Positions 50,420-63,998 of a stretch of DNA of 64,000 nt are shown piece after piece. The DNA comes from an uncultured Candidatus Saccharibacteria bacterium. GTDB taxonomy: Bacteria; Patescibacteriota; Minisyncoccia; 2-02-FULL-40-12; GWA2-44-9. Below the pieces are notes generated by a model that saw nothing but the letters and a program-made list of their open reading frames with translations, was not told the DNA's origin and ran no database searches. A program made the position numbers and the translations under genes. The stretch's first letter is position 1, and each line of letters opens with the position of its first letter. The stretch covers positions 26,425 through 90,424 of the forward strand of contig CAZENF010000003.1 in assembly GCA_964513645.1 (NCBI GenBank), given 5' to 3'.

Positions 50420-50680
50420 TTCCGGCGTAGCTCAATGGTAGAGCGGCTCCCTGTGAAATGAATCGCAGCTTTCCATCGAAAGGTGGATTGAAACACTTCG
50501 GGATATCGGTGAAGCCCTAATTCGAAAGAATGGGTAATACCGAGGGAACCCGCAAGGGGCACCGTAGAGACTAGATACCGAAGCACCCTTTTTGGGGTGA
50601 TGATATAGTCCACACCATACGAAAGTATTGGGCAACGTGTAAGGAGATGGTTCCAGGTTCGAGTCCTGGCGCCGGAGCCA
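50420..50680 (+). tRNA. intron-containing tRNA, best fit tRNA-Asn(GUU)
   Basis: 5' exon 50420..50453 (TCCGGCG-TA-GCTC-AATGGTA-GAGC-G-GCTCC-CTGT). 3' exon 50640..50680 (TAA-GGAGA-TGGTT-CCAGG-TTCGAGT-CCTGG-CGCCGGA-G-CCA). The spliced anticodon loop CUGUUAA, U1-A72 and G73 fit Asn. Thr(UGU) is the alternative if the splice site is read 2 nt upstream. Confidence 0.7.
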
Positions 50681-52228
50681 AGAAGGATGAACATCTGCGG
50701 AAGCAGGTGTTTTTCCTTTATTAGCTATGTTTTTTGCCGGTTCGAAAGTGGAATTCAGCTTTGGCATCCACTCTGCCAAAAATTCGAACGCAAATGTGTA
50801 ATTTGCGCTTATTTTATCTGCATCCAATGTAAGGTTCGAAAATACATAGCTCAACAGCAACCGGCGGTCCTCAACAGTCGCTTTCTCGCTCTGATAAATC
50901 TGCTTGGCTTTCAACGCGAGCTCGTGAATGGCAAAGCCAGCGGCATAGTATTGCGTGTTTGATTGGTCGAGCTTTCCGAGCTTCTCGAGGATGTTTTCTT
51001 TCTCTTCTGTGTATTCTTTGAATTTGCGCTCATAGAATTCCGGCGCAATCTTGCCGTCTATCTTATCCTCGTAGATTGCTTCCAAGCGGCGCTGAATGCG
51101 CTCTGACTGCGTTACAAGCTCGCGCTTCTGTGCCTCGTAGTAATTTATTTCTTCGGCGTGGCTCTCTTTGAGCGCCTTCTCGAGCAAGCGCAACACACGC
51201 TCATTCTTGGGCGCTACGCCATCGAAGAATGGAAAGAGTTGTTCTTCCACCTTCTCCTGTCTGATGGTCCCTTTTCGTGGGCAACCCTTGTAGTGATTGC
51301 AGTCGCCATACCAGTGGCCTTTCTTGGTATACCAAGTGATAGTGCCACCACAGTCGAGACATTGGACCTTTGCTTTGAACACAGGCAGATGCTTTCGATA
51401 TACAGGGGCTTTGAGTTTCCTTGCGAGCTTTGCCTGCACTTCTTCGAACAGCTCTCTTGAGATTATCGGCTCATGTTCACCCGGATAGATTTCATCTTTC
51501 CATCGGACCTTGCCGTAATAGAAAGGGTCTGAAAGCAAATCGTGCATCCTGCTTTTTCCAACCTTGCCGCCATTTCGGTTTCTCAATCCTTCCTTATACA
51601 TCGTGTCAACGAGAGAGTGCGTTGAATGATTGCCTGAAGAATATAGCTCGAACATTCTGCGGATGTATGGCGCCTTCTCCGGGTCAATGAGATGAATCCG
51701 GTGCCCCTTGTCTCCGTCCGACTTATAACCAAGCGGCGGTTTCGTTGGCAGCCATCCCTGTGCCAATTTTTCTTTCTGTCCTTTCTTCACTTCTTCGGAG
51801 AGGTTGTTGGTGTAGAAGCGAGCAATAGCAACTTTCATATCCCAAACCAAATTTTCGTGGGCCCGGGTGTTTTTGTTCAATACGAAATTCTCTTTTACAA
51901 AGTGAACCTCGCGCTTCGGGTCCGCTTTCACCCAGTCATCAATCGTGCTGGCGTCTTTCAGATTTCTTGTAAGGCGGTCAATCTTTTCACAAGCGATGAT
52001 GTGGACCTTGTGCTTCTCGGCATACTGCATCATTTCGTTGAGAGATTTGCGAATCTGTTTACCGCTTGCCGATTCAGTTATCTTGTAAACTTTCGGGACT
52101 ACAAAACCATGTCTGTCCGAGTAGTCCTTGAGCAGCTTTTCCTGCGCTTCCAATGAATAGCCGGTTTCTTCCTGTTCTTTGGAAGAGACACGGCAGTATA
52201 TGAGTGATTTTTGAGTAGTTATTTCCAT
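50432..52228 (-). CDS. large serine recombinase (resolvase/invertase catalytic domain + recombinase domain + zinc ribbon + coiled coil)
   Basis: N-terminal LIYCRVSSKEQ and KIDRLTRN catalytic-Ser motifs, and the CLDCGG...CNHYKGC zinc ribbon. The last ~85 codons of the ORF are antisense to the tRNA 3' exon and intron, so the true C-terminus is uncertain. Confidence 0.8.
   Translation of the reverse strand: MEITTQKSLIYCRVSSKEQEETGYSLEAQEKLLKDYSDRHGFVVPKVYKITESASGKQIRKSLNEMMQYAEKHKVHIIACEKIDRLTRNLKDASTIDDWVKADPKREVHFVKENFVLNKNTRAHENLVWDMKVAIARFYTNNLSEEVKKGQKEKLAQGWLPTKPPLGYKSDGDKGHRIHLIDPEKAPYIRRMFELYSSGNHSTHSLVDTMYKEGLRNRNGGKVGKSRMHDLLSDPFYYGKVRWKDEIYPGEHEPIISRELFEEVQAKLARKLKAPVYRKHLPVFKAKVQCLDCGGTITWYTKKGHWYGDCNHYKGCPRKGTIRQEKVEEQLFPFFDGVAPKNERVLRLLEKALKESHAEEINYYEAQKRELVTQSERIQRRLEAIYEDKIDGKIAPEFYERKFKEYTEEKENILEKLGKLDQSNTQYYAAGFAIHELALKAKQIYQSEKATVEDRRLLLSYVFSNLTLDADKISANYTFAFEFLAEWMPKLNSTFEPAKNIANKGKTPASADVHPSWLRRQDSNLEPSPYTLPNTFVWCGLYHHPKKGASVSSLYGAPCGFPRYYPFFRIRASPISRSVSIHLSMESCDSFHREPLYH
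50454..50639 (+). ncRNA. group I self-splicing intron (small IC3/Azoarcus-like) in the tRNA anticodon loop
   Basis: R-like CCGTAGAGACTAGATACCG and S-like GATGATATAGTCC elements form P7 (AGACUA/UAGUC). Q-like ACCCGCAAGG and P-like AATTCGAAAG elements. P1 can form between exon CUGU and intron GCAG with the U.G pair at the splice site. P2 ccatc-GAAA-ggtgg. Omega G precedes the 3' exon. Confidence 0.7.
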
Positions 52229-54702: not shown

Positions 54703-54844
54703 TCTTACTTGTAAAATAGCAATTTTATGGCTTTATCTCAACTCAAAACGGCATTGAAAAAACTCTCGGGAATTGATAAGATGAAATTGCACAACTGAAT
54801 AAAGCTCGTGAGAGCAGGACCTACAACCCTCGGTAACCATCCCG

Positions 54845-55315
54845 GTGGCATGGTCTCAAAGTCGGATAAGGCGCAGAGAACCCGTCATGTGGTTGCCTTA
54901 TCCGCCTTATCGGGAAACCGGTAAGTCCACGAAAGTGGAGACCCGTGGCGGGCTTTGTGCGTTCTGCGGACCGCCCGGGCGTTCGAGATTCAATCTCACG
55001 CCCATGAAAAAACTACCATCAAGAGACAAAGTATTTTGGAAAAACTTTTTCTACGCACTTTTGATATTTCTGTTTGCCGTAGTAATTTTCACTGTTGAAA
55101 ATAATGCCACTGGTGATGCTCCTACCCCTTTGAGATTCTCTGATTTCACTTCAACGCTTGGACTGGTTGGATTCTTTGCGATAATCGCATGCTGTTATTT
55201 CGTAGCCATGCGATTTGTTCGCTCAAAAAAGATAGACGAGTTTGTTGAAAAGAAGGGACTCACTTACCAAGCGTTCAGAGAAAAATACGGAGAGTTTTTG
55301 GACTACATAGATTGA
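54845..55315 (+). CDS. hypothetical membrane protein
   Basis: Two TM helices. The true start is probably internal (MKKLPSRDK). Confidence 0.3.
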   Translation: MAWSQSRIRRREPVMWLPYPPYRETGKSTKVETRGGLCAFCGPPGRSRFNLTPMKKLPSRDKVFWKNFFYALLIFLFAVVIFTVENNATGDAPTPLRFSDFTSTLGLVGFFAIIACCYFVAMRFVRSKKIDEFVEKKGLTYQAFREKYGEFLDYID

Positions 55316-55416: not shown

Positions 55417-55617
55417 ATGAAACGAAAGCCGAAGAATAGCAAAAATCAGACCTCGCACGATGTTTTGACATTGAAAGAAGCGTGCGAGTTATTGAATTGT
55501 CATCCAAATACACTTCGTAATTGGGACAACAAAGGTGTGCTGCGAGCAATAAGGTTTGGTAGTCGTGGGGACCGGCGCTACCGCAAGCAAGATATTTTGA
55601 AGCTGATAAAAAAATAA
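55417..55617 (+). CDS. excisionase-family (HTH_17/MerR-like) DNA-binding protein
   Basis: LTLKEACELLNCHPNTLRNWDNKGVLRAIRFGSRGDRRY is typical of Xis-type HTH. Confidence 0.55.
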   Translation: MKRKPKNSKNQTSHDVLTLKEACELLNCHPNTLRNWDNKGVLRAIRFGSRGDRRYRKQDILKLIKK

Positions 55618-55624
55618 GAGCTAT

Positions 55625-57337
55625 ATGGCACGCAAAATAAATTACGACAACTGGTCAAGAGAAGAATTGGAAAAGGAGCTTCGCCGCTTGAAAGAGACGA
55701 AGTATGGTCTTGTTTGGCATCGAGACCTTCCCGAAGAAAAGATTGATGTGCTTATCAATCCCGATGCTCGCACGCCAAATGAAATGTTCCCGAACGAGAT
55801 GGCAGGCAAACCATTTCCAGTTTTGAAAGAAGCAAAATCGAAAGAGGTCAACGGAGATAAAGATAAGCGAATCAACTTGCTTATCGAGGGAGATAATTTT
55901 CATTCACTCGCCGTTCTCAACTTTTCTCATCAAGAAGCGGTGGACCTGATTTACATCGACCCCCCTTATAACCGAGGTGTGAAAGGTGGCAATGATTTCC
56001 GCTATAACGACAAATTTATTGATAGCGAAGACCCTTTTCGGCACAGCAAATGGCTTTCCTTTATGGAAAAAAGGTTGAAGCTGGCAAAGAATTTGATGAA
56101 AGCAACAGGCGTTATTTTCATCAGCATTGACAATACAGAGCAAGCGCCACTGCGCTTACTGTGTGATGAAATTTTTGGGGATAAGAATTTCGTTGGCACT
56201 TTGATTTGGAGAAAAAAAGAAGGTGGCGGCCAAGCTGACGCATATTTTGTTACCGAACATGAATATGTTTTGGCCTACGCAAAGTCCGATAAGTTTCAAT
56301 GGAAGGACGAAGAAATTCCAGTTGATGAAGCGGAATACAACAAGGAAGACGATGAGGGTAAATTCACAGCCGTAAAGTTGGCGAAATGGGGCAACACCGC
56401 TCGAAGAGAGGACCGCCCAAAGATGTATTTCCCTATAAAGTCCCCGGATGGCAAAAATGTTTATCCCATTGCACCCGATGGTGGTGATGGGCGCTGGCGT
56501 GTAGGCAAAAAACGGATGGATATGTTGGTTGAGAAAGACCTTGTTTATTGGCAACAGAAAAATGGCAAGTGGATACCCTACGAGAAGATTTATTTTGATG
56601 GTGATGAAGTCAAGAAAATAAAGGAGAGAAGTATTCTGTTTGACCTTGCCACAACCGCTGACGGAACCAATGAGCTTACGGAAATTTTCGGTAAGAAGGA
56701 TATTTTCGAAAACCCGAAACCAACAGAGCTCATCAAATTCTTTCTCCGTTATGGTGCGGACACTAATGCTGTTGTGCTGGATTTCTTTGCTGGTTCCGGC
56801 ACCACCGGCCAAGCGGTAATGAAAGCAAACCAAGAGGACGGCGGTAATCGCCAATTCATACTGTGCACCAATGACGAGAATGGTATTTGCACGGAAGTTT
56901 GCTATCCACGCCTCAAGAAAGTTATCAAGGGATACAAAAATCCCAAGAATAAAAATGTCGATGGTCTTGGTGGTAATTTGAAATACTTCACTTGCGACTT
57001 CGTAGAAGCAGAGCCAACGGACAGGAATAAAAGAAAGTTGGTCAACGAATCAACGGATATGCTTTGCATCCGAGAGAATGCTTTTGAGTTGGTGCAAGAT
57101 GGGACTGACTTCAAGATTTTCAAGAACGGCGCAAAGTATCTTGGTATCGTCTTTCACGAGGATGCTATTGATGATTTCAAAAAGGCCATAAAGAAAATGG
57201 ACGGCAAATTCAATGTGTATGTGTTCTCGCTGGGAGATGACCCACACGAGAAGCAGTTTATGGATGTAAGAGAAAAGGTCGCTCTCTGTGCCATACCGGA
57301 GGTCATCTTGAAGGTGTATAGAGAGATTTTCAAATAA
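55625..57337 (+). CDS. mod: Type III restriction-modification Mod subunit (beta-class N6-adenine DNA methyltransferase)
   Basis: Motif IV LIYIDPPYN early, motif I LDFFAGSGTTG late (beta order). 570 aa. Immediately followed by res. Confidence 0.8.
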   Translation: MARKINYDNWSREELEKELRRLKETKYGLVWHRDLPEEKIDVLINPDARTPNEMFPNEMAGKPFPVLKEAKSKEVNGDKDKRINLLIEGDNFHSLAVLNFSHQEAVDLIYIDPPYNRGVKGGNDFRYNDKFIDSEDPFRHSKWLSFMEKRLKLAKNLMKATGVIFISIDNTEQAPLRLLCDEIFGDKNFVGTLIWRKKEGGGQADAYFVTEHEYVLAYAKSDKFQWKDEEIPVDEAEYNKEDDEGKFTAVKLAKWGNTARREDRPKMYFPIKSPDGKNVYPIAPDGGDGRWRVGKKRMDMLVEKDLVYWQQKNGKWIPYEKIYFDGDEVKKIKERSILFDLATTADGTNELTEIFGKKDIFENPKPTELIKFFLRYGADTNAVVLDFFAGSGTTGQAVMKANQEDGGNRQFILCTNDENGICTEVCYPRLKKVIKGYKNPKNKNVDGLGGNLKYFTCDFVEAEPTDRNKRKLVNESTDMLCIRENAFELVQDGTDFKIFKNGAKYLGIVFHEDAIDDFKKAIKKMDGKFNVYVFSLGDDPHEKQFMDVREKVALCAIPEVILKVYREIFK

Positions 57338-57341
57338 ATTT

Positions 57342-59573
57342 ATGTGGATTGAATTCAAAGATTATCAAGAAAAAGCCATTGTCAAATTGAAGCAAGAGGT
57401 CAATGACCTCTTGGAGGCCGATGGTAATAAAATTTGCATATTCAAAGCTCCGACCGGCTCCGGTAAGACACTGATGATGGCCGAGTTTTTGAAGCGCCTT
57501 ATTGATTCGAGAATTGACGACAAGAAGTTTTCTTTTATTTGGATTGCTGTGAACAAGTTGCATGACCAAAGCCGCAATAGCTTGAAAAAATACTATGAAC
57601 CACTTGGTATTGCTCTCAAGTGTTCTTATTTCGATGACTTGGATGACCGAAAAATTGGTCCGAATGAAATCCTATTTTTGAACTGGGCAAGCATCAACAA
57701 GAAAGACAATGTGTATGTTCGAGAAAATGAACGAGACAACAACCTCTCGAATATCATTGCACGCACCAAAGAAGAAGGTCGGTCAATCATTTTGATAATT
57801 GATGAGAGCCATCGAAATGCAGAAACAGAAAAATCAAAAGAGCTTATTGATGACATTGGCCCGAAAATCACCATAGAAGTTTCAGCTACGCCGCAGCTCA
57901 AGGGAGTATTTCGTGGTGTGGAGGTTGAACTCAAAGCCGTAAAGGATGAGGGAATGATAAAGAAAGAGGTTGCAATCAACCCGGGATTTGAGACCCTCAA
58001 ACTCGATAAAAAACTTGCTGACAAAACAGCCGATGAAATTGTTGTTGAGGCCGGATTGAAAAAGCGCCTTGAGCTCGCCAAGCAATACGCAGCCGAGGGG
58101 TCAAATGTGAACCCACTCACGCTTATTCAGATACCGGATGCTCGTGCCGGATTGGATAAGAAAGACGCTGTGATTCAGCTTCTTGCTAAATATGGAATTA
58201 CGACAGAGAACGGCAAGCTGGCAATTTATTTGTCCGACAAAGACAACAAGGTCAACCTTGAGAACATAGAGAAAAATGAAAACGAGGTTGAGGTGATGAT
58301 TTTCAAACAAGCCATTGCTGTGGGTTGGGATTGTCCCCGTGCTGCAATCTTGGTGTTATTCCGCGAGTGGAAGAATGTGGTTTTCTCGATTCAAACTATC
58401 GGACGCATTATGCGCATGCCGGAGCACCACCACTACAACAGCTCGGAGCTCAACATGGGCTATGTATACACGAGCTTGAGCGACATCGGTATCGCAGAGG
58501 ATATTTCAAGAGAATACATCACTGTTTTTGAGGGCAATAGGCGTAAGGATTACAAAAACATTGACCTCGCCTCTGTTCACTCAAAACGCTTCCGAGAAGA
58601 AACTCGATTGTCATCTGACTTTGTGCCGATATTTTTCAAAGCAGCAGATGAATTGAAATTGAAAAAGAGCATCTCGCTCAAGCACAGCATCGTAGATACC
58701 AAGCTCATTGCAAGCGGCAAAATTACAGATGTAGATAAAGAGGCAAAGAGTATTGAAAAGAAAGGCACGCTGGATATACCAAAGAATGAAGTCGAGCTAC
58801 AAAATGCCTTCGACTACTTCGCTCGAGAAAATCTTGCTCCCTTTGCACCGGAACTACGCTCGATAAAGCGTATCAATGATTCTATCTATCGTTTCTTCGA
58901 TAAAGAATTCAAAATGGGTGTTGATGAATGGCCGAAGGTGCAAGCAGTGGTCTTGGCAGAGGAAAATCGGCAGAAAATGGTTGATGTTATCAATCGTGCA
59001 AAGGAGCTCTACCAAGATGTTGTTGGTAGAGGTAAACAAGAGTTGGTTGAAAACGAAGAGCCGTGGAATGTGCCGGAGACCATCAACTACAACCTGACCT
59101 TCACGAAGAAAGATTATAAGAAATCAATTATCCAGCCATACTACGCAAGGACAGGCAATGGCAACCTCGAGCTATTCGAAGAAGACAGCGACATCGAAGT
59201 GGACTTTATTGCCTACTTGGAAAAAGCAAAACAAGTGAAGTGGTGGTTCAAGAATGGCCGACAGGATGGCTCATATTTTGCCGTGCCATACACCGAAAAT
59301 GGCATTGAGAAGCCCTTCTATGTCGATTTCGTTGTAATGCTCTCTGACGGCAAAATAGGCCTGTTTGACACGAAGGGTGGCATCTATGCCAAGACGGCCA
59401 AAGAGCGCGCCGAGGGCCTCGCTGCCTATATCGAAAATGAGAATAAGCACGGCAAGAAGTTGCTTGGCGGTATCGTGCTGAAAGACAAAGGTAGCTGGCG
59501 ATACAGCGATAGCAAGAAATACTCTTACGACCCCAAAGACCTTACCAAGTGGAAGTTTTTGGACCTCAACTGA
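57342..59573 (+). CDS. res: Type III restriction enzyme Res subunit (SF2 helicase + C-terminal PD-(D/E)xK nuclease)
   Basis: Helicase motif I FKAPTGSGKT and motif II IIDESHR. C-terminal EVDF...LEKAK nuclease-like motif. 743 aa. Confidence 0.75.
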   Translation: MWIEFKDYQEKAIVKLKQEVNDLLEADGNKICIFKAPTGSGKTLMMAEFLKRLIDSRIDDKKFSFIWIAVNKLHDQSRNSLKKYYEPLGIALKCSYFDDLDDRKIGPNEILFLNWASINKKDNVYVRENERDNNLSNIIARTKEEGRSIILIIDESHRNAETEKSKELIDDIGPKITIEVSATPQLKGVFRGVEVELKAVKDEGMIKKEVAINPGFETLKLDKKLADKTADEIVVEAGLKKRLELAKQYAAEGSNVNPLTLIQIPDARAGLDKKDAVIQLLAKYGITTENGKLAIYLSDKDNKVNLENIEKNENEVEVMIFKQAIAVGWDCPRAAILVLFREWKNVVFSIQTIGRIMRMPEHHHYNSSELNMGYVYTSLSDIGIAEDISREYITVFEGNRRKDYKNIDLASVHSKRFREETRLSSDFVPIFFKAADELKLKKSISLKHSIVDTKLIASGKITDVDKEAKSIEKKGTLDIPKNEVELQNAFDYFARENLAPFAPELRSIKRINDSIYRFFDKEFKMGVDEWPKVQAVVLAEENRQKMVDVINRAKELYQDVVGRGKQELVENEEPWNVPETINYNLTFTKKDYKKSIIQPYYARTGNGNLELFEEDSDIEVDFIAYLEKAKQVKWWFKNGRQDGSYFAVPYTENGIEKPFYVDFVVMLSDGKIGLFDTKGGIYAKTAKERAEGLAAYIENENKHGKKLLGGIVLKDKGSWRYSDSKKYSYDPKDLTKWKFLDLN

Positions 59574-59574
59574 T

Positions 59575-60354
59575 ATGAATTCATTCAAAGACATTGCATA
59601 TCAAATCTTGCAAGAAGCGGGCAAACCTCTTCACAGCAAGGAAATAACAAAAATCGCTCTTGAGCGTGGCTGGTTGAAAACTGCGGGTAAGACACCGGAG
59701 GCCACCATGAACGCTCAAATCGTGGTAGACATCAATGCGAAGAAAGATGCCTCAAGGTTTGTAAAAACTGCGCCATCAACATTTGGTATCAACCCGAGCC
59801 CCACCCTACAAGTGAAAGCGGCTGACAAGGTGAAAGTTTTTGAAGCCCCTCGTTTGGAAAAGAAATGGAAAGTTTCTGCAAATATCTCGACCAAACAGAA
59901 AGGAGATATTGCCGAAGCTCGCATTGCAGAGCTCATCACTTTGTATGGCGATACCACTTTGTCATGCTACAAACCAATTTCTGATGACGAAGGGATTGAC
60001 CTTATCGTGAAAGAGAAAGGTAGTTTGCGGACAATGTATATCCAAATCAAAAGTCGCTTTGGAGATAATCCGGACGATATTTTCACAGCAACCGCAAAAG
60101 CAGGCACACTTGCAGACAATTACTCGATGGCCATAGTGTTTTGCTTTTTCGACACCGAAGAAGGCGATGTATGGGACTTTGTGTGGTTTGTGCCGGCACC
60201 GGATTTTATCAAGATGGCCAATAAGTTGGATGGTGGAAAGATGTTTGGTTTTGTTGCTGGCCGACAAAAGAAAGAATCAAACAAGTGGGACCAGTATTTG
60301 ATTGATAAGCGAGATTTGGCAAATGCCATTCTCGCTCAAATGAAACGGATATGA
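59575..60354 (+). CDS. HARE-HTH domain protein fused to a PD-(D/E)xK nuclease-like domain
   Basis: N-terminal DIAYQILQEAGKPLHSKEI...TPEATMNAQIVVDI...RFVKTAPSTFGI fits HARE-HTH. C-terminal AEARIAELI / DDEGIDLIV / YIQIKS fits E...D...QxK. Confidence 0.5.
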   Translation: MNSFKDIAYQILQEAGKPLHSKEITKIALERGWLKTAGKTPEATMNAQIVVDINAKKDASRFVKTAPSTFGINPSPTLQVKAADKVKVFEAPRLEKKWKVSANISTKQKGDIAEARIAELITLYGDTTLSCYKPISDDEGIDLIVKEKGSLRTMYIQIKSRFGDNPDDIFTATAKAGTLADNYSMAIVFCFFDTEEGDVWDFVWFVPAPDFIKMANKLDGGKMFGFVAGRQKKESNKWDQYLIDKRDLANAILAQMKRI

Positions 60355-61025
60355 TTCAATTCGACTTTGTAAAAATGCTCTGGCCGCTGTGGGTGCTTAT
60401 AGGAGTGCTTGTAGTTACTCGCGTTGTTATTGAAGTGGTCATACCTGACCTTTTTCATAGTTGGCAAAACCGAAGGAAGTTTCGTGCAGGAGAGAAATGG
60501 CGTTCTGATAGAGAGCTCTTACAGTGGCTCCGCGGCATGAAGCCGGCAGAGTTTGAGGATTATATTGCCGACCTCTTTTCTCGTTTGGGATATAAGACAC
60601 AAGCCACTGGTAAATCACACGATGGAGGCATTGATGTTATTGCAGAGAAAGACGGCAAGACAAGCTATATTCAATGCAAGAAATTCATCACTCAAGAGGT
60701 TACTGTTGGAGCGGTCCGAGATTTCTACGGCGCTTTGGTTGACCATGTGGGTAATGGCAAAGGTTATTTCATCACTACAAATAAATTTACCCTTGAGGCC
60801 GAGAAATTCGCCGAGGATAAGCCGATTGAGCTCGTAGATGGGTTTGACCTTGTTCGCTATATCCGCATGACAAATAAAGATACCGAGACCCTGAAAACTA
60901 TCCAAACAACACCCACTAAATGCCCGGAGGATGGTGGCACGCTTGTAGAGCGCACAGGTAAATTCGGAAAATTCTTGGGTTGCTCAAATTATCCAAAGTG
61001 TCGTTATACCGCGGCAATCAAATGA
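60351..61025 (+). CDS. membrane-anchored Mrr-type restriction endonuclease catalytic domain with C-terminal topoisomerase-type C4 zinc ribbon
   Basis: N-terminal TM helix. Mrr_cat pattern (FEDYIADLFSRLGY...SHDGGIDVIAEKDGKTSYIQCKKF...VRDFYGAL...GYFITTNKFT). CPEDGG...CSNYPKC zinc ribbon. Confidence 0.65.
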   Translation: MIQFDFVKMLWPLWVLIGVLVVTRVVIEVVIPDLFHSWQNRRKFRAGEKWRSDRELLQWLRGMKPAEFEDYIADLFSRLGYKTQATGKSHDGGIDVIAEKDGKTSYIQCKKFITQEVTVGAVRDFYGALVDHVGNGKGYFITTNKFTLEAEKFAEDKPIELVDGFDLVRYIRMTNKDTETLKTIQTTPTKCPEDGGTLVERTGKFGKFLGCSNYPKCRYTAAIK

Positions 61026-61026
61026 C

Positions 61027-62688
61027 ATGGAAAAAGATTTTTTATTGTTCAATGATTTTTTCAAAAAATTTGATGAGCTTGGAAAAGGAGAATGGATAAC
61101 CGCTTACTCATCGAACGACAGAGATAACCCAAAAGAGTGGGCCACTTTTTTCTGCGCCCTTGTTTCCAATAGCCACATTGAGAAGTCCTTGAAAGACCCA
61201 TCGTGGGATTTGACCATTGGTAGAGGTTTGCCCGGCTTTTCTTTTACATGGAAAGATGGCAAACAAATAGGTAGTTATTCAAAGATTGCAGATGAAGGTA
61301 TAGAGCCGCTCGTGATGAGTCGAAGTTTTCATGGAATGAAAGATGGTTACTGGGAGGTTTCGGAAGAATTTCGCTATTACTTCAACCTCTACGAAGACAA
61401 AAGAAATAACAAATTTATTTTGATTGATGATAATGGGGATGATGAAGATGTAATTTCAATGTCAGAGAATGAAATAAGAATCAAAACCCGTCTTATCAAA
61501 GAATTTGCGGCTGCCAAAAAGATGCACCTTGCCATATTTTTTGATTTCATCAGATTTTCCCCGAAAACCATTGAAGAATTGGACATCAAGGAATACCACG
61601 AGCATAAAACAGGCGCGGACTTCGTGTATTCAATCGGTGCAAGGAATTGGGATGGATTCGGAGAAGATGGCAGAAAATCAAATGGTTTTCTGATGGGCAA
61701 GAAGCTAATCCCCGGTCTGAAAGATTTTGCTCCAAAAATGTTTGATTACGAGAATAAACAGTATGCAGATTTCGCTATTGGTGTTGATGAGAATGGAAAA
61801 GAAATAAATTTCACTTCTGACGAAGAGAAGTTGGCTAACTACTTCGGAAAAAATAAAGGTGCCCCACTTTATGTAACTCCAGTATTTTTCAAGAAAGAAG
61901 TGCTATCAAAATACTACTCGCAGCCAGAAAAATACTCGGTTGAAGATGGCTACCTGCGTTGTGGAGGCATGTGGGGCTTGCGAATGGATGATAATCACCC
62001 GAATTTTGTTATGGTATTTCTCGGTGATTTGGGGCACTTGTCCTACAAAGAGCAGCTCTATTGGAAAGGTTTCAATGTGGCCACAAAAGAAAAGATAAGC
62101 TACACCGCTTTTACGAGAAGTTTTGAAGGTCAATTTTCAGACCCAGAAAACCCTGCCTTATTTTTCAAACAAAAACTTGATTCCTTCCAGAAGGAGTGGG
62201 AGAAAAAATTTGCTTGGAAACTTTTCCGCCCATTATCTCAAGGTGATGAACATCATCTCAAGACACTGCGAGTGCCTTTGACAAACGAACAAAAAGAGTT
62301 TGATGAGCAAATTCTTTCGCTAACAAAAGTTTTTATAGATTCACTCAACGAACAAGAATTGGCGAAAGGACTGGTATTGAAAGACGGTGCAAAGGGCCTT
62401 GATAAGTTGGAAGTGTTTTTTCAGTCCAAAAATGTAAGATTTCGCGGCATGATTGAATTTTTGCGTGACCTACAAGAGTTGAGGTCAACAGGCGTTGCTC
62501 ATCTGAAAGGCAGTAAATACGATAAAATCAAGACAACTTTTGGTATTGGCCAAAAGGACTTGTCCAAAGTTTTCGTTGATATTTTAGTAAACTGTATAAC
62601 CACAATGAATTCTTTGGAAAATCATTTTGTTCAAAAGGATGAACATTTGAAAGCTGTCCCCGGTATATCATCAGACAAGAGCCAATAG
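61027..62688 (+). CDS. hypothetical 553-aa protein with C-terminal HEPN-like Rx5H motif
   Basis: ELRSTGVAHLKG near the C-terminus. Translationally coupled to the upstream genes (2-nt spacing). No other motif recognised. Confidence 0.4.
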   Translation: MEKDFLLFNDFFKKFDELGKGEWITAYSSNDRDNPKEWATFFCALVSNSHIEKSLKDPSWDLTIGRGLPGFSFTWKDGKQIGSYSKIADEGIEPLVMSRSFHGMKDGYWEVSEEFRYYFNLYEDKRNNKFILIDDNGDDEDVISMSENEIRIKTRLIKEFAAAKKMHLAIFFDFIRFSPKTIEELDIKEYHEHKTGADFVYSIGARNWDGFGEDGRKSNGFLMGKKLIPGLKDFAPKMFDYENKQYADFAIGVDENGKEINFTSDEEKLANYFGKNKGAPLYVTPVFFKKEVLSKYYSQPEKYSVEDGYLRCGGMWGLRMDDNHPNFVMVFLGDLGHLSYKEQLYWKGFNVATKEKISYTAFTRSFEGQFSDPENPALFFKQKLDSFQKEWEKKFAWKLFRPLSQGDEHHLKTLRVPLTNEQKEFDEQILSLTKVFIDSLNEQELAKGLVLKDGAKGLDKLEVFFQSKNVRFRGMIEFLRDLQELRSTGVAHLKGSKYDKIKTTFGIGQKDLSKVFVDILVNCITTMNSLENHFVQKDEHLKAVPGISSDKSQ

Positions 62689-63260: not shown

Positions 63261-63998
63261 TTACCTCGACCTGCTCCTTCTCCAGCGGGGAGGGCCTTTT
63301 CGTAAGTAGCTGTTGCGTCCGAATCTTTTAGGAGGTGCATCTGATAGGAATGTCTGGCCGCCATGAGATTTTACCGGAATTTCTTTTCTAACTAACCGTT
63401 CTATGTCCCGAACATCACGTTTTTGGTCGGGCATGGCAAATGAAATGGCTTTTCCGCTGTCTCCGGCTCTGCCTGTCCGGCCGATCCGGTGGACATAATC
63501 CTGCACATTATCGGGTAATTCAAAATTTATTACCATTTTAATTCCCCGGACATCTATGCCACGGGCGGCAATGTCAGTGGCGACTAAAATACGATATGCG
63601 CCGGATTTGAATCCTGACATCGCGGCCATTCTCTGGCTTAGTGAGCGGTCTGAATGAATTTCGACTGCTTTGTAGTGCATGTCCTGGAGGGCTCCGCAAA
63701 CTTTGCGGGCGCCATGACGGGTGCGCGTGAACAATAATACTTGCCCGGGATTTTCTTCCAGAATTTTTAAAAGTAAAGGAAACCTGTCTTGTTTTTGAAC
63801 CAGAAATATTTCCTGGTCAACCAATTCGGCTGCAGTTCCGGCCGGAGCAACTTCAACCCGGACCGGCGAGGTCATATATGCGGCGGATATCTTAACTATC
63901 TCACTGGGCATGGTAGCCGAGAACAACATTGCCTGACGCTCTTGAGGTATAAGACTGAATATTTTTCTTATTTGAGGCTCAAAGCCGATATCAAGCAT
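63261..63998 (-). CDS. DEAD-box RNA helicase, C-terminal part (N-terminus lies beyond the window end)
   Basis: Motif VI HRIGRTGRAG and a basic C-terminal tail. The ORF is open at the window edge. Confidence 0.8.
   Translation of the reverse strand: MLDIGFEPQIRKIFSLIPQERQAMLFSATMPSEIVKISAAYMTSPVRVEVAPAGTAAELVDQEIFLVQKQDRFPLLLKILEENPGQVLLFTRTRHGARKVCGALQDMHYKAVEIHSDRSLSQRMAAMSGFKSGAYRILVATDIAARGIDVRGIKMVINFELPDNVQDYVHRIGRTGRAGDSGKAISFAMPDQKRDVRDIERLVRKEIPVKSHGGQTFLSDAPPKRFGRNSYLRKGPPRWRRSRSR

Follow-up and report, generated by a model that had tools for sequence, protein, structure and literature searches.

Three genes at the end of a Type III operon

The window analysed here is a 64,000-nucleotide stretch from an uncultured Candidatus Saccharibacteria bacterium (GenBank assembly GCA_964513645.1, contig CAZENF010000003.1, positions 26,425 to 90,424 of the forward strand). 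It contains a Type III restriction-modification (R-M) operon followed by three further genes, designated here geneA, geneB and geneC. The listing of open reading frames (ORFs) gives the operon order, entirely on the + strand, as HTH_17, mod, res, geneA, geneB, geneC, and confirms the three ORFs on which an original prediction of a defence module had been based: geneA (59575-60354, 259 aa), geneB (60351-61025, 224 aa) and geneC (61027-62688, 553 aa). The tight packing behind res, read in that prediction as a probable single operon, is also borne out. A single nucleotide separates res from geneA (TGA-T-ATG), geneA and geneB overlap by 4 nt (ATGA), and geneB and geneC are again 1 nt apart (TGA-C-ATG). 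A consensus scan detected no terminator-like sites between the genes beyond the level of shuffled sequence, and no promoter or terminator excess inside the block. The layout fits a single translationally coupled operon; expression by translational coupling is apparent from the junctions, and we infer that the genes are also co-transcribed. The GC content of geneC is lower (38.7% vs 43-45%), which suggests that this gene was acquired separately.

All three are real genes rather than chance ORFs, since each has approximately 1,000 or more homologues: 923 for geneA, 1,065 of the same architecture for geneB, and more than 1,000 close homologues for geneC, with at least 2,479 50%-identity clusters at E <=1e-3. 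As had been predicted, none of them fits a named multi-gene system in PADLOC. The further claim that the three constitute one module did not hold up. Independent occurrence, with the genes never together elsewhere, had been named as the observation that would speak against it, and this is the distribution found outside the source organism.

The comparison covered 84 geneA loci (79 distinct), 35 geneC loci (with an upstream flank of at least 0.7 kb in 30 and at least 1.5 kb in 27) and five distinct geneB contexts (L122-L134). By tblastn, no homologue of geneA, geneB, mod or res was detected at E <=1e-3 in any of the 35 geneC loci. Conversely, geneC is absent from all 84 geneA loci, including the 33 with at least 2.5 kb of downstream sequence, and no full geneB occurs in any of the 53 whose downstream sequence reaches 0.7 kb or more; the only geneB match near geneA is to the Zn ribbon alone (residues 172-224), in a 112-aa ORF. 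Neither geneA nor geneC is found in the five geneB contexts. The complete A-B-C arrangement recurs solely in two short metagenome contigs (L036 and L037) that belong to the same organism and are 100% identical. The closest relatives of the Res protein (36-49% identity) carry either geneA alone (mod-res-geneA) or OLD-DUF2130-geneB, and this presence of other riders on related Type III systems marks the 3' end of these operons as a site that collects cassettes.

Architecture and contexts of the three proteins

The geneA product consists of a HARE-HTH domain (residues 3-71; PF05066 at 75.9 bits, gathering threshold 25.9, E 3.2e-21), a variable linker and a PD-(D/E)xK-like nuclease domain at approximately residues 101-259. 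The latter scores 24.9 bits with PDDEXK_5, slightly below the gathering score of 26.1, and its putative catalytic residues (E114, D142 and Q157-x-K159) do not vary among 20 aligned homologues, in which the linker is the only variable region. The predicted fusion of a HARE-HTH with a PD-(D/E)xK-like domain is supported, the nuclease half being putative. No solved structural relative of the nuclease domain was found. Identity remains at 75-85% in homologues from Bacteroidota, Patescibacteria, Pacearchaeota and Methanosarcinales.

Fusions of HARE-HTH with domains of the restriction-endonuclease fold were reportedly described by Aravind and Iyer in 2012. Comparative genomics ties such fusions to R-M systems that modify N6-adenine or to Dnd systems, and discrimination of modified DNA has been proposed as their role (PMC4738411, PMC10853773), although which modification HARE-HTH reads is disputed (PMC11037411). 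On its architecture, geneA is a member of this already predicted class, and it shares the linkage to N6-adenine-methylating R-M operons. The geneA family differs in being short (~253 aa) and extremely conserved, in riding at the end of operons, and in being found also behind GmrSD and AbiU2 genes that lack a methyltransferase.

In nearly every locus geneA is the terminal gene of a same-strand operon, with a gap to the preceding gene that is typically between -4 and +6 nt; its downstream neighbour is variable. BLAST clustering places Type I HsdS/HsdM-like clusters before geneA in 19 loci, including BcgI-like M+S pairs (one of three scanned representatives of these clusters meets Pfam Methylase_S), Type III Res in 14, an N6_N4 methyltransferase in nine, HEPN_AbiU2 in four and GmrSD in two. 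A D12 methyltransferase cluster precedes geneA in six further loci, with two 229-aa members that do not match the D12 reference. An R-M gene lies directly upstream in about 48 of the 74 loci that have an upstream ORF (~65%), and GmrSD or AbiU2 in six more. In L102, the same D12-x-N6N4 R-M unit is present both with and without geneA. Because near-identical copies stand behind unrelated methyltransferase classes, Type I and Type III genes, and GmrSD or AbiU2 without a methyltransferase, an autonomous protein is favoured, and geneA is most likely a Type IV-like endonuclease that discriminates DNA modification. The same range of partners, Type I S and Type III Res among them, rules out geneA as the cognate Type II restriction endonuclease of an adjacent methyltransferase.

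Directly behind the geneA stop codon, 34 of 80 loci have a conserved GC-rich element ~100 nt long (GGCGGCGCGCCAG-loop-CTGGCACGAAATTCGGCGGCGG...GAGGGCGGGC...GCCCGCCCGAGC), irrespective of the type of operon upstream. It is found among loci L045-L106, for example at L054:8757-8860 and L064:4776-4880, and is missing from the window. Its first hairpin shows compensatory changes, and a search of eight loci against Rfam returned no family at the gathering threshold. Many contigs end within or right after the element, which suggests a multi-copy repeat or a recombination site. A second conserved sequence (…TCTTCTACCCTTGTTTTTCGAAAAAC…) lies downstream of geneA in eight loci with differing upstream operons (L089, L092, L102, L103, L105, L116, L118 and L119).

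The 224-aa geneB product begins with a transmembrane (TM) helix at approximately residues 13-31, followed by an Mrr_cat domain at residues 60-170 (PF04471, E 6e-30) with D91/D95 and Q108-C-K110, and by a Zn ribbon at residues 190-223 (Zn_ribbon_Top1, E 2e-14) with C191, D194, C211 and C217 as putative ligands. D91, D95, Q108 and K110 are invariant in the family alignment. An N-terminal hydrophobic segment is present in all 18 homologues compared, with a Kyte-Doolittle 19-residue maximum of 1.9-3.0, and the cluster of R and K residues that follows it predicts, by the positive-inside rule, a cytoplasmic nuclease domain. The Mrr-type catalytic domain, the topoisomerase-type ribbon and the N-terminal TM segment of the original prediction are all retained. 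The ribbon in the window is not of the predicted C4 type; it reads CPEDGG (60921-60935, residues 191-195), against CPxCGG in most of the family, giving C-D-C-C. One other homologue, P0273, also has Asp at the second Zn ligand.

The matches of geneB in PADLOC are generic only (mREase_IV, PDC-S02 and the ZorD nuclease domain). Like Mrr, a Type IV enzyme, it has an Mrr_cat domain with the D...QxK motif; unlike Mrr, it comprises only 224 aa and lacks an N-terminal winged-helix reader (Pfam returned no Mrr_N match, and the N-terminus is the TM helix), having instead a membrane anchor and a Zn ribbon of topoisomerase type. Judged by these features geneB is a variant Mrr, most likely a membrane-tethered Mrr-family nuclease facing the cytoplasm, with a DNA-binding Zn ribbon, acting in a stand-alone manner on DNA near the membrane. 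Its homologues are mostly solitary. Two of the five contexts lie among housekeeping genes (RNR, ThrRS, AlaX-like), one is behind an Eco57I/MmeI-like methyltransferase, one is ~4 kb from an EcoRI-methyltransferase/GmrSD pair, and one ends a mod-res-OLD-DUF2130-geneB operon. A housekeeping role is possible. The last of these contexts (L129-L131, e.g. GCA_027423055.1 DAICAH010000002.1) has the order mod, res, an OLD-family gene (AAA_15 + TOPRIM), DUF2130 and geneB, with a Res 36% identical to that of the window.

For geneC, the single sequence has no match in Pfam, NCBIfam, PHROGs, PADLOC or the PDB sequences, and a geneC profile found none among the PDB sequences. Pfam searches with 27 family members returned nothing at E <=10, with no HEPN family and no ATPase domain among the results, and no HEPN profile of PADLOC or NCBIfam matched geneC. 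In terms of these searches, geneC is a large cross-domain family without annotation in any of the libraries, spread over Patescibacteria, DPANN and other Archaea, Pseudomonas, Rhodococcus, Nostoc and Streptomyces. The top 150 representatives share an architecture of about 540 aa. The only architectural variant among them is P0416 (857 aa), a homologue with an additional C-terminal PNP_UDP_1 domain of the nucleoside phosphorylase superfamily (residues 632-836, E 4e-12).

An AF2 model built with 27 sequences (pLDDT 80.8) divides geneC into a β-rich N-terminal part (~1-350) and a helical C-terminal part (376-535). The N-terminal domain, a putative sensor, corresponds to 61027-62118 (+; residues 1 to ~364), and the C-terminal domain, HEPN-like and a putative RNase effector, to 62119-62688 (+), with conserved E424-F-D426 and R486-x5-H492. 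The Rx5H motif of HEPN type that had been predicted for this region is well preserved: within L-R486-S-x-G-x-A-H492-x-K-G the histidine is invariant, and 26 of 27 sequences keep the arginine, the remaining one having K. Foldseek searches with the model returned Avs3 (E 9e-3) and HepT structures 6m6u and 7bxo (probability 0.8-0.9). After SeAvs3, the nearest solved folds of the helical domain include HEPN toxins, and SeAvs3, a sensor of phage proteins, is the sole structural neighbour of the β-rich N-domain. The statement that geneC otherwise has no recognisable domain is correct at the level of sequence; at that of fold, its N-terminal part has this one clear neighbour. By exclusion, the N-domain would match the β-rich, terminase-binding C-terminal sensor of SeAvs3 (PMC13601566). 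No STAND NTPase domain is present in geneC. Upx was also considered and ruled out on account of its length (~1,200 aa) and the nuclease at its C-terminus (PMC13601566).

The favoured interpretation is that geneC unites sensor and effector in a single chain: the N-domain would sense a cue of infection, and RNase activity would reside in the HEPN-like domain. It would be a new take on the theme of single-protein abortive infection by a sensor plus HEPN. Reuse of the Avs7 sensor outside STAND proteins is known for Dsr1 and for one HEPN-like protein (bioRxiv 10.64898/2026.01.04.697583); that precedent concerns Avs7, whereas the neighbour of geneC is SeAvs3. We regard it as a tentative possibility that geneC is a new single-gene antiphage system, with a sensor of Avs1-3 type wired to a HEPN RNase without a STAND NTPase. 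Among HEPN proteins (HepT, AbiU2, AbiJ, PrrC/RloC), the shared features are the helical C-terminus and Rx5H, and like PrrC in the prr hsd locus, geneC is solitary and often beside Type I R-M. However, it lacks the MNT antitoxin partner of HepT and the N-terminal ABC-type NTPase of PrrC and RloC, with which it has only the R-M linkage and a HEPN-like motif in common; it matches no HEPN profile, and its 360-residue β-rich N-domain is new by sequence.

The only recurring neighbours of geneC in all-against-all clustering are Type I hsdR, hsdM and hsdS, in five, four and three loci, respectively (Type I in 5-6 of 33 loci). Neither a conserved neighbour nor a small antitoxin-like partner ORF was detected, the clusters seen being antisense ORFs within geneC. 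When the two flanking genes on either side were classified with Pfam, the result was a mixture: R-M genes (Type I, R.HinP1I, AlwI, an N6_N4 methyltransferase), an integrase and housekeeping genes. Across phyla geneC adjoins Type I R-M, GmrSD and AbiEii genes, and these neighbourhoods argue for a role in defence. On plasmid pPma4326F of P. syringae pv. maculicola ES4326 (L135, 137914-139494), a geneC homologue (38% identity, WP_007250370.1) is the first cargo gene behind gmtY-gmtZ (VPA1269-family)-gmtX of a GMT island. Defence genes are over-represented in the cargo of these islands (bioRxiv 10.1101/2023.03.28.534373); the GAPS/GMT-island paper and its supplements make no mention of WP_007250370.1. 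A more distant homologue on P. aeruginosa pWTJH6 (L137) lies beside a CBASS operon (SAVED, nucleotidyltransferase, ThiF-like, MPN), and Rhodococcus homologues adjoin DUF4238 or toxin-antitoxin genes. No relatives of geneB or geneC were found in IMG/VR viral contigs.

Probable independent riders and alternative readings

Taken together, the locus is probably a composite defence operon of independent riders and not a co-evolved module. In such an operon, a serine-recombinase integrative element would carry the Type III R-M genes (an HTH controller, mod and res), and three riders would have joined them at the 3' end, each a promoterless single-gene cassette that is mobile on its own and is expressed through translational coupling. 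From their domains, motifs, contexts and fold neighbours we infer the activities of all three products. geneA, with its HARE-HTH reader and small PD-(D/E)xK nuclease, would discriminate modification in a Type IV manner; it habitually closes restriction operons, whatever their type. geneB would be a TM-anchored Mrr-type nuclease acting alone on DNA near the membrane. In geneC, the β-rich N-domain would detect an infection cue, upon which the C-terminal HEPN-like domain, with its Rx5H motif, would act as an RNase and cause growth arrest and abortive infection. The three layers would operate in parallel, in the style of an immigration control region, and not as one machine. The comparison with such regions and defence islands (E. 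coli K-12 mcrBC-hsdRMS-mrr) extends to the clustering of R-M genes with Mrr-type, modification-dependent nucleases and abortive-infection genes, to components that are exchangeable independently, and to the mobile element. The window locus differs in its compactness, as one translationally coupled operon led by Type III genes, and in its unusual rider families.

Several points weigh against independent riders. The data on all three families are comparative, and the co-occurrence sampling of geneB is small, at five contexts. Tight translational coupling would be equally expected of a true module, and a lineage-specific functional interaction would be compatible with the comparative data. Some homologues of geneB and geneC are also found among housekeeping genes. 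An integrated module that combines a DNA-sensing HTH with two nucleases and a HEPN effector, and that serves as a modification-dependent or abortive-infection backup dependent on the Type III system, would readily account for junctions of 1, -4 and 1 nt that join the three genes and res in a single operon, for the defence-type domains in each of the three, and for the repetition of the arrangement in two metagenome contigs, though these are from the same organism. It is nevertheless very improbable in light of the missing co-occurrence in 35 geneC loci, 84 geneA loci and five geneB contexts, the different riders of the closest Res relatives (36-49%), and the deviating GC content of geneC.

A narrower dependence, in which geneA alone is an accessory subunit of the upstream R-M system, either as a methylation reader that licenses or recruits restriction or as a nuclease that finishes nicked or cut DNA, and geneB and geneC are independent riders, is unlikely. 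The position of geneA directly behind an R-M gene and translationally coupled to it, in ~65% of loci with an upstream ORF, and the literature linking HARE-HTH to N6A-modifying R-M (PMC4738411) are what such a subunit would lead one to expect. However, the upstream partner may be HsdS, a BcgI-like S, either of two unrelated methyltransferase classes, Type III Res, GmrSD or HEPN_AbiU2, and geneA is ~80% identical whatever the partner, which argues against a specific protein-protein partnership. The D12-x-N6N4 unit of L102 exists with and without geneA, and the GmrSD and AbiU2 contexts have no methyltransferase to partner. Roles outside defence, with geneB as a housekeeping membrane nuclease (e.g. 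in the DNA uptake or nucleotide scavenging of small-genome organisms) and geneA as a selfish, homing-endonuclease-like cassette on operon 3' ends, are quite unlikely. The two geneB contexts in housekeeping surroundings point in this direction, as do the match of the geneA nuclease to PDDEXK_5 (a family that we take to include an intron-encoded endonuclease), the extreme conservation of geneA across domains of life, and the GC-rich hairpin element behind it in 34 of 80 loci, with its frequent contig breaks. Against this, the geneB nuclease is predicted to be cytoplasmic, three of its five contexts are R-M or defence neighbourhoods, no common target sequence lies upstream of geneA, and geneA occurs overwhelmingly with restriction genes rather than in random operons.

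A-B-C should not be catalogued as one defence system. R-M operons in uncultured small-genome lineages gather interchangeable, promoterless, coupled 3' riders, which provides a guilt-by-association handle for new defence genes. The unusually conserved geneA could reveal what HARE-HTH, which is also present in human ASXL proteins, reads in DNA. Homologues of geneC on plasmids of cultivable Pseudomonas and Rhodococcus make the predicted sensor-plus-HEPN mechanism directly testable; if true, geneC would be a minimal pattern-recognition abortive-infection protein.

The Type III core and the surrounding island

The operon is headed by a small HTH_17/MerR-type DNA-binding protein (55417-55617, +), a probable controller (Pfam HTH_17, E 8.7e-12; PADLOC mad1, E 3e-9). 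It is followed by mod (55625-57337, +), encoding an N6/N4 DNA methyltransferase (Pfam N6_N4_Mtase, E 1e-39; PADLOC MTase_III, E 2e-93), and by res (57342-59573, +), encoding a superfamily 2 (SF2) helicase with a C-terminal PD-(D/E)xK nuclease (Pfam ResIII, E 7e-20; PADLOC REase_III, E 1e-19). A methyltransferase beside such a Res protein identifies the pair as Type III R-M. Homologues of the HTH_17 gene precede Type III or methyltransferase operons that end in geneA (L038, L047, L100, L115 and L116), and in L001 a geneC homologue is preceded by an HTH_17 gene unrelated to that of the window. The C-terminal F-Y-V-D ... D-T-K motif is kept in 11 of 12 aligned Res proteins, and given this conservation Res has a nuclease of its own; geneA as a stand-in for a missing Res nuclease is thus ruled out. 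In L111 (3429-5675), a Type III Res 45% identical to that of the window has F-D-P-H-G in place of F-D-T-K-G, and its catalytic Lys appears to be lost; geneA is still found downstream of it.

The operon is part of an island of ~13 kb, bounded on the left by a large serine recombinase gene (50432-52228, -; Pfam Resolvase, Recombinase and Zn_ribbon_recom), with the chromosome resuming on the right at a DEAD-box helicase gene at 63261. Small ORFs without assigned function occupy 52.4-54.7 kb. At the left island edge, beneath the 3' extension of the recombinase ORF, there is a group I intron-like match to RF00028 (50445-50631, +; E 7e-11, 47.9 bits with the gathering threshold at 50). The tail of this ORF reads ...RRQDSNLEP..., a string associated with read-through of tRNA-like sequence. 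ARAGORN detected no tRNA in 40000-64000; the RF00028-like site may be an intron-containing tRNA used as the integration site. Within the island, a full-length match to the Rfam LOOT RNA (RF03000) is located at 54818-54939 (+; E 5.6e-10, 62.6 bits with the gathering threshold at 46.4). It overlaps the start of an ORF at 54845-55315 and is ~480 nt upstream of HTH_17.

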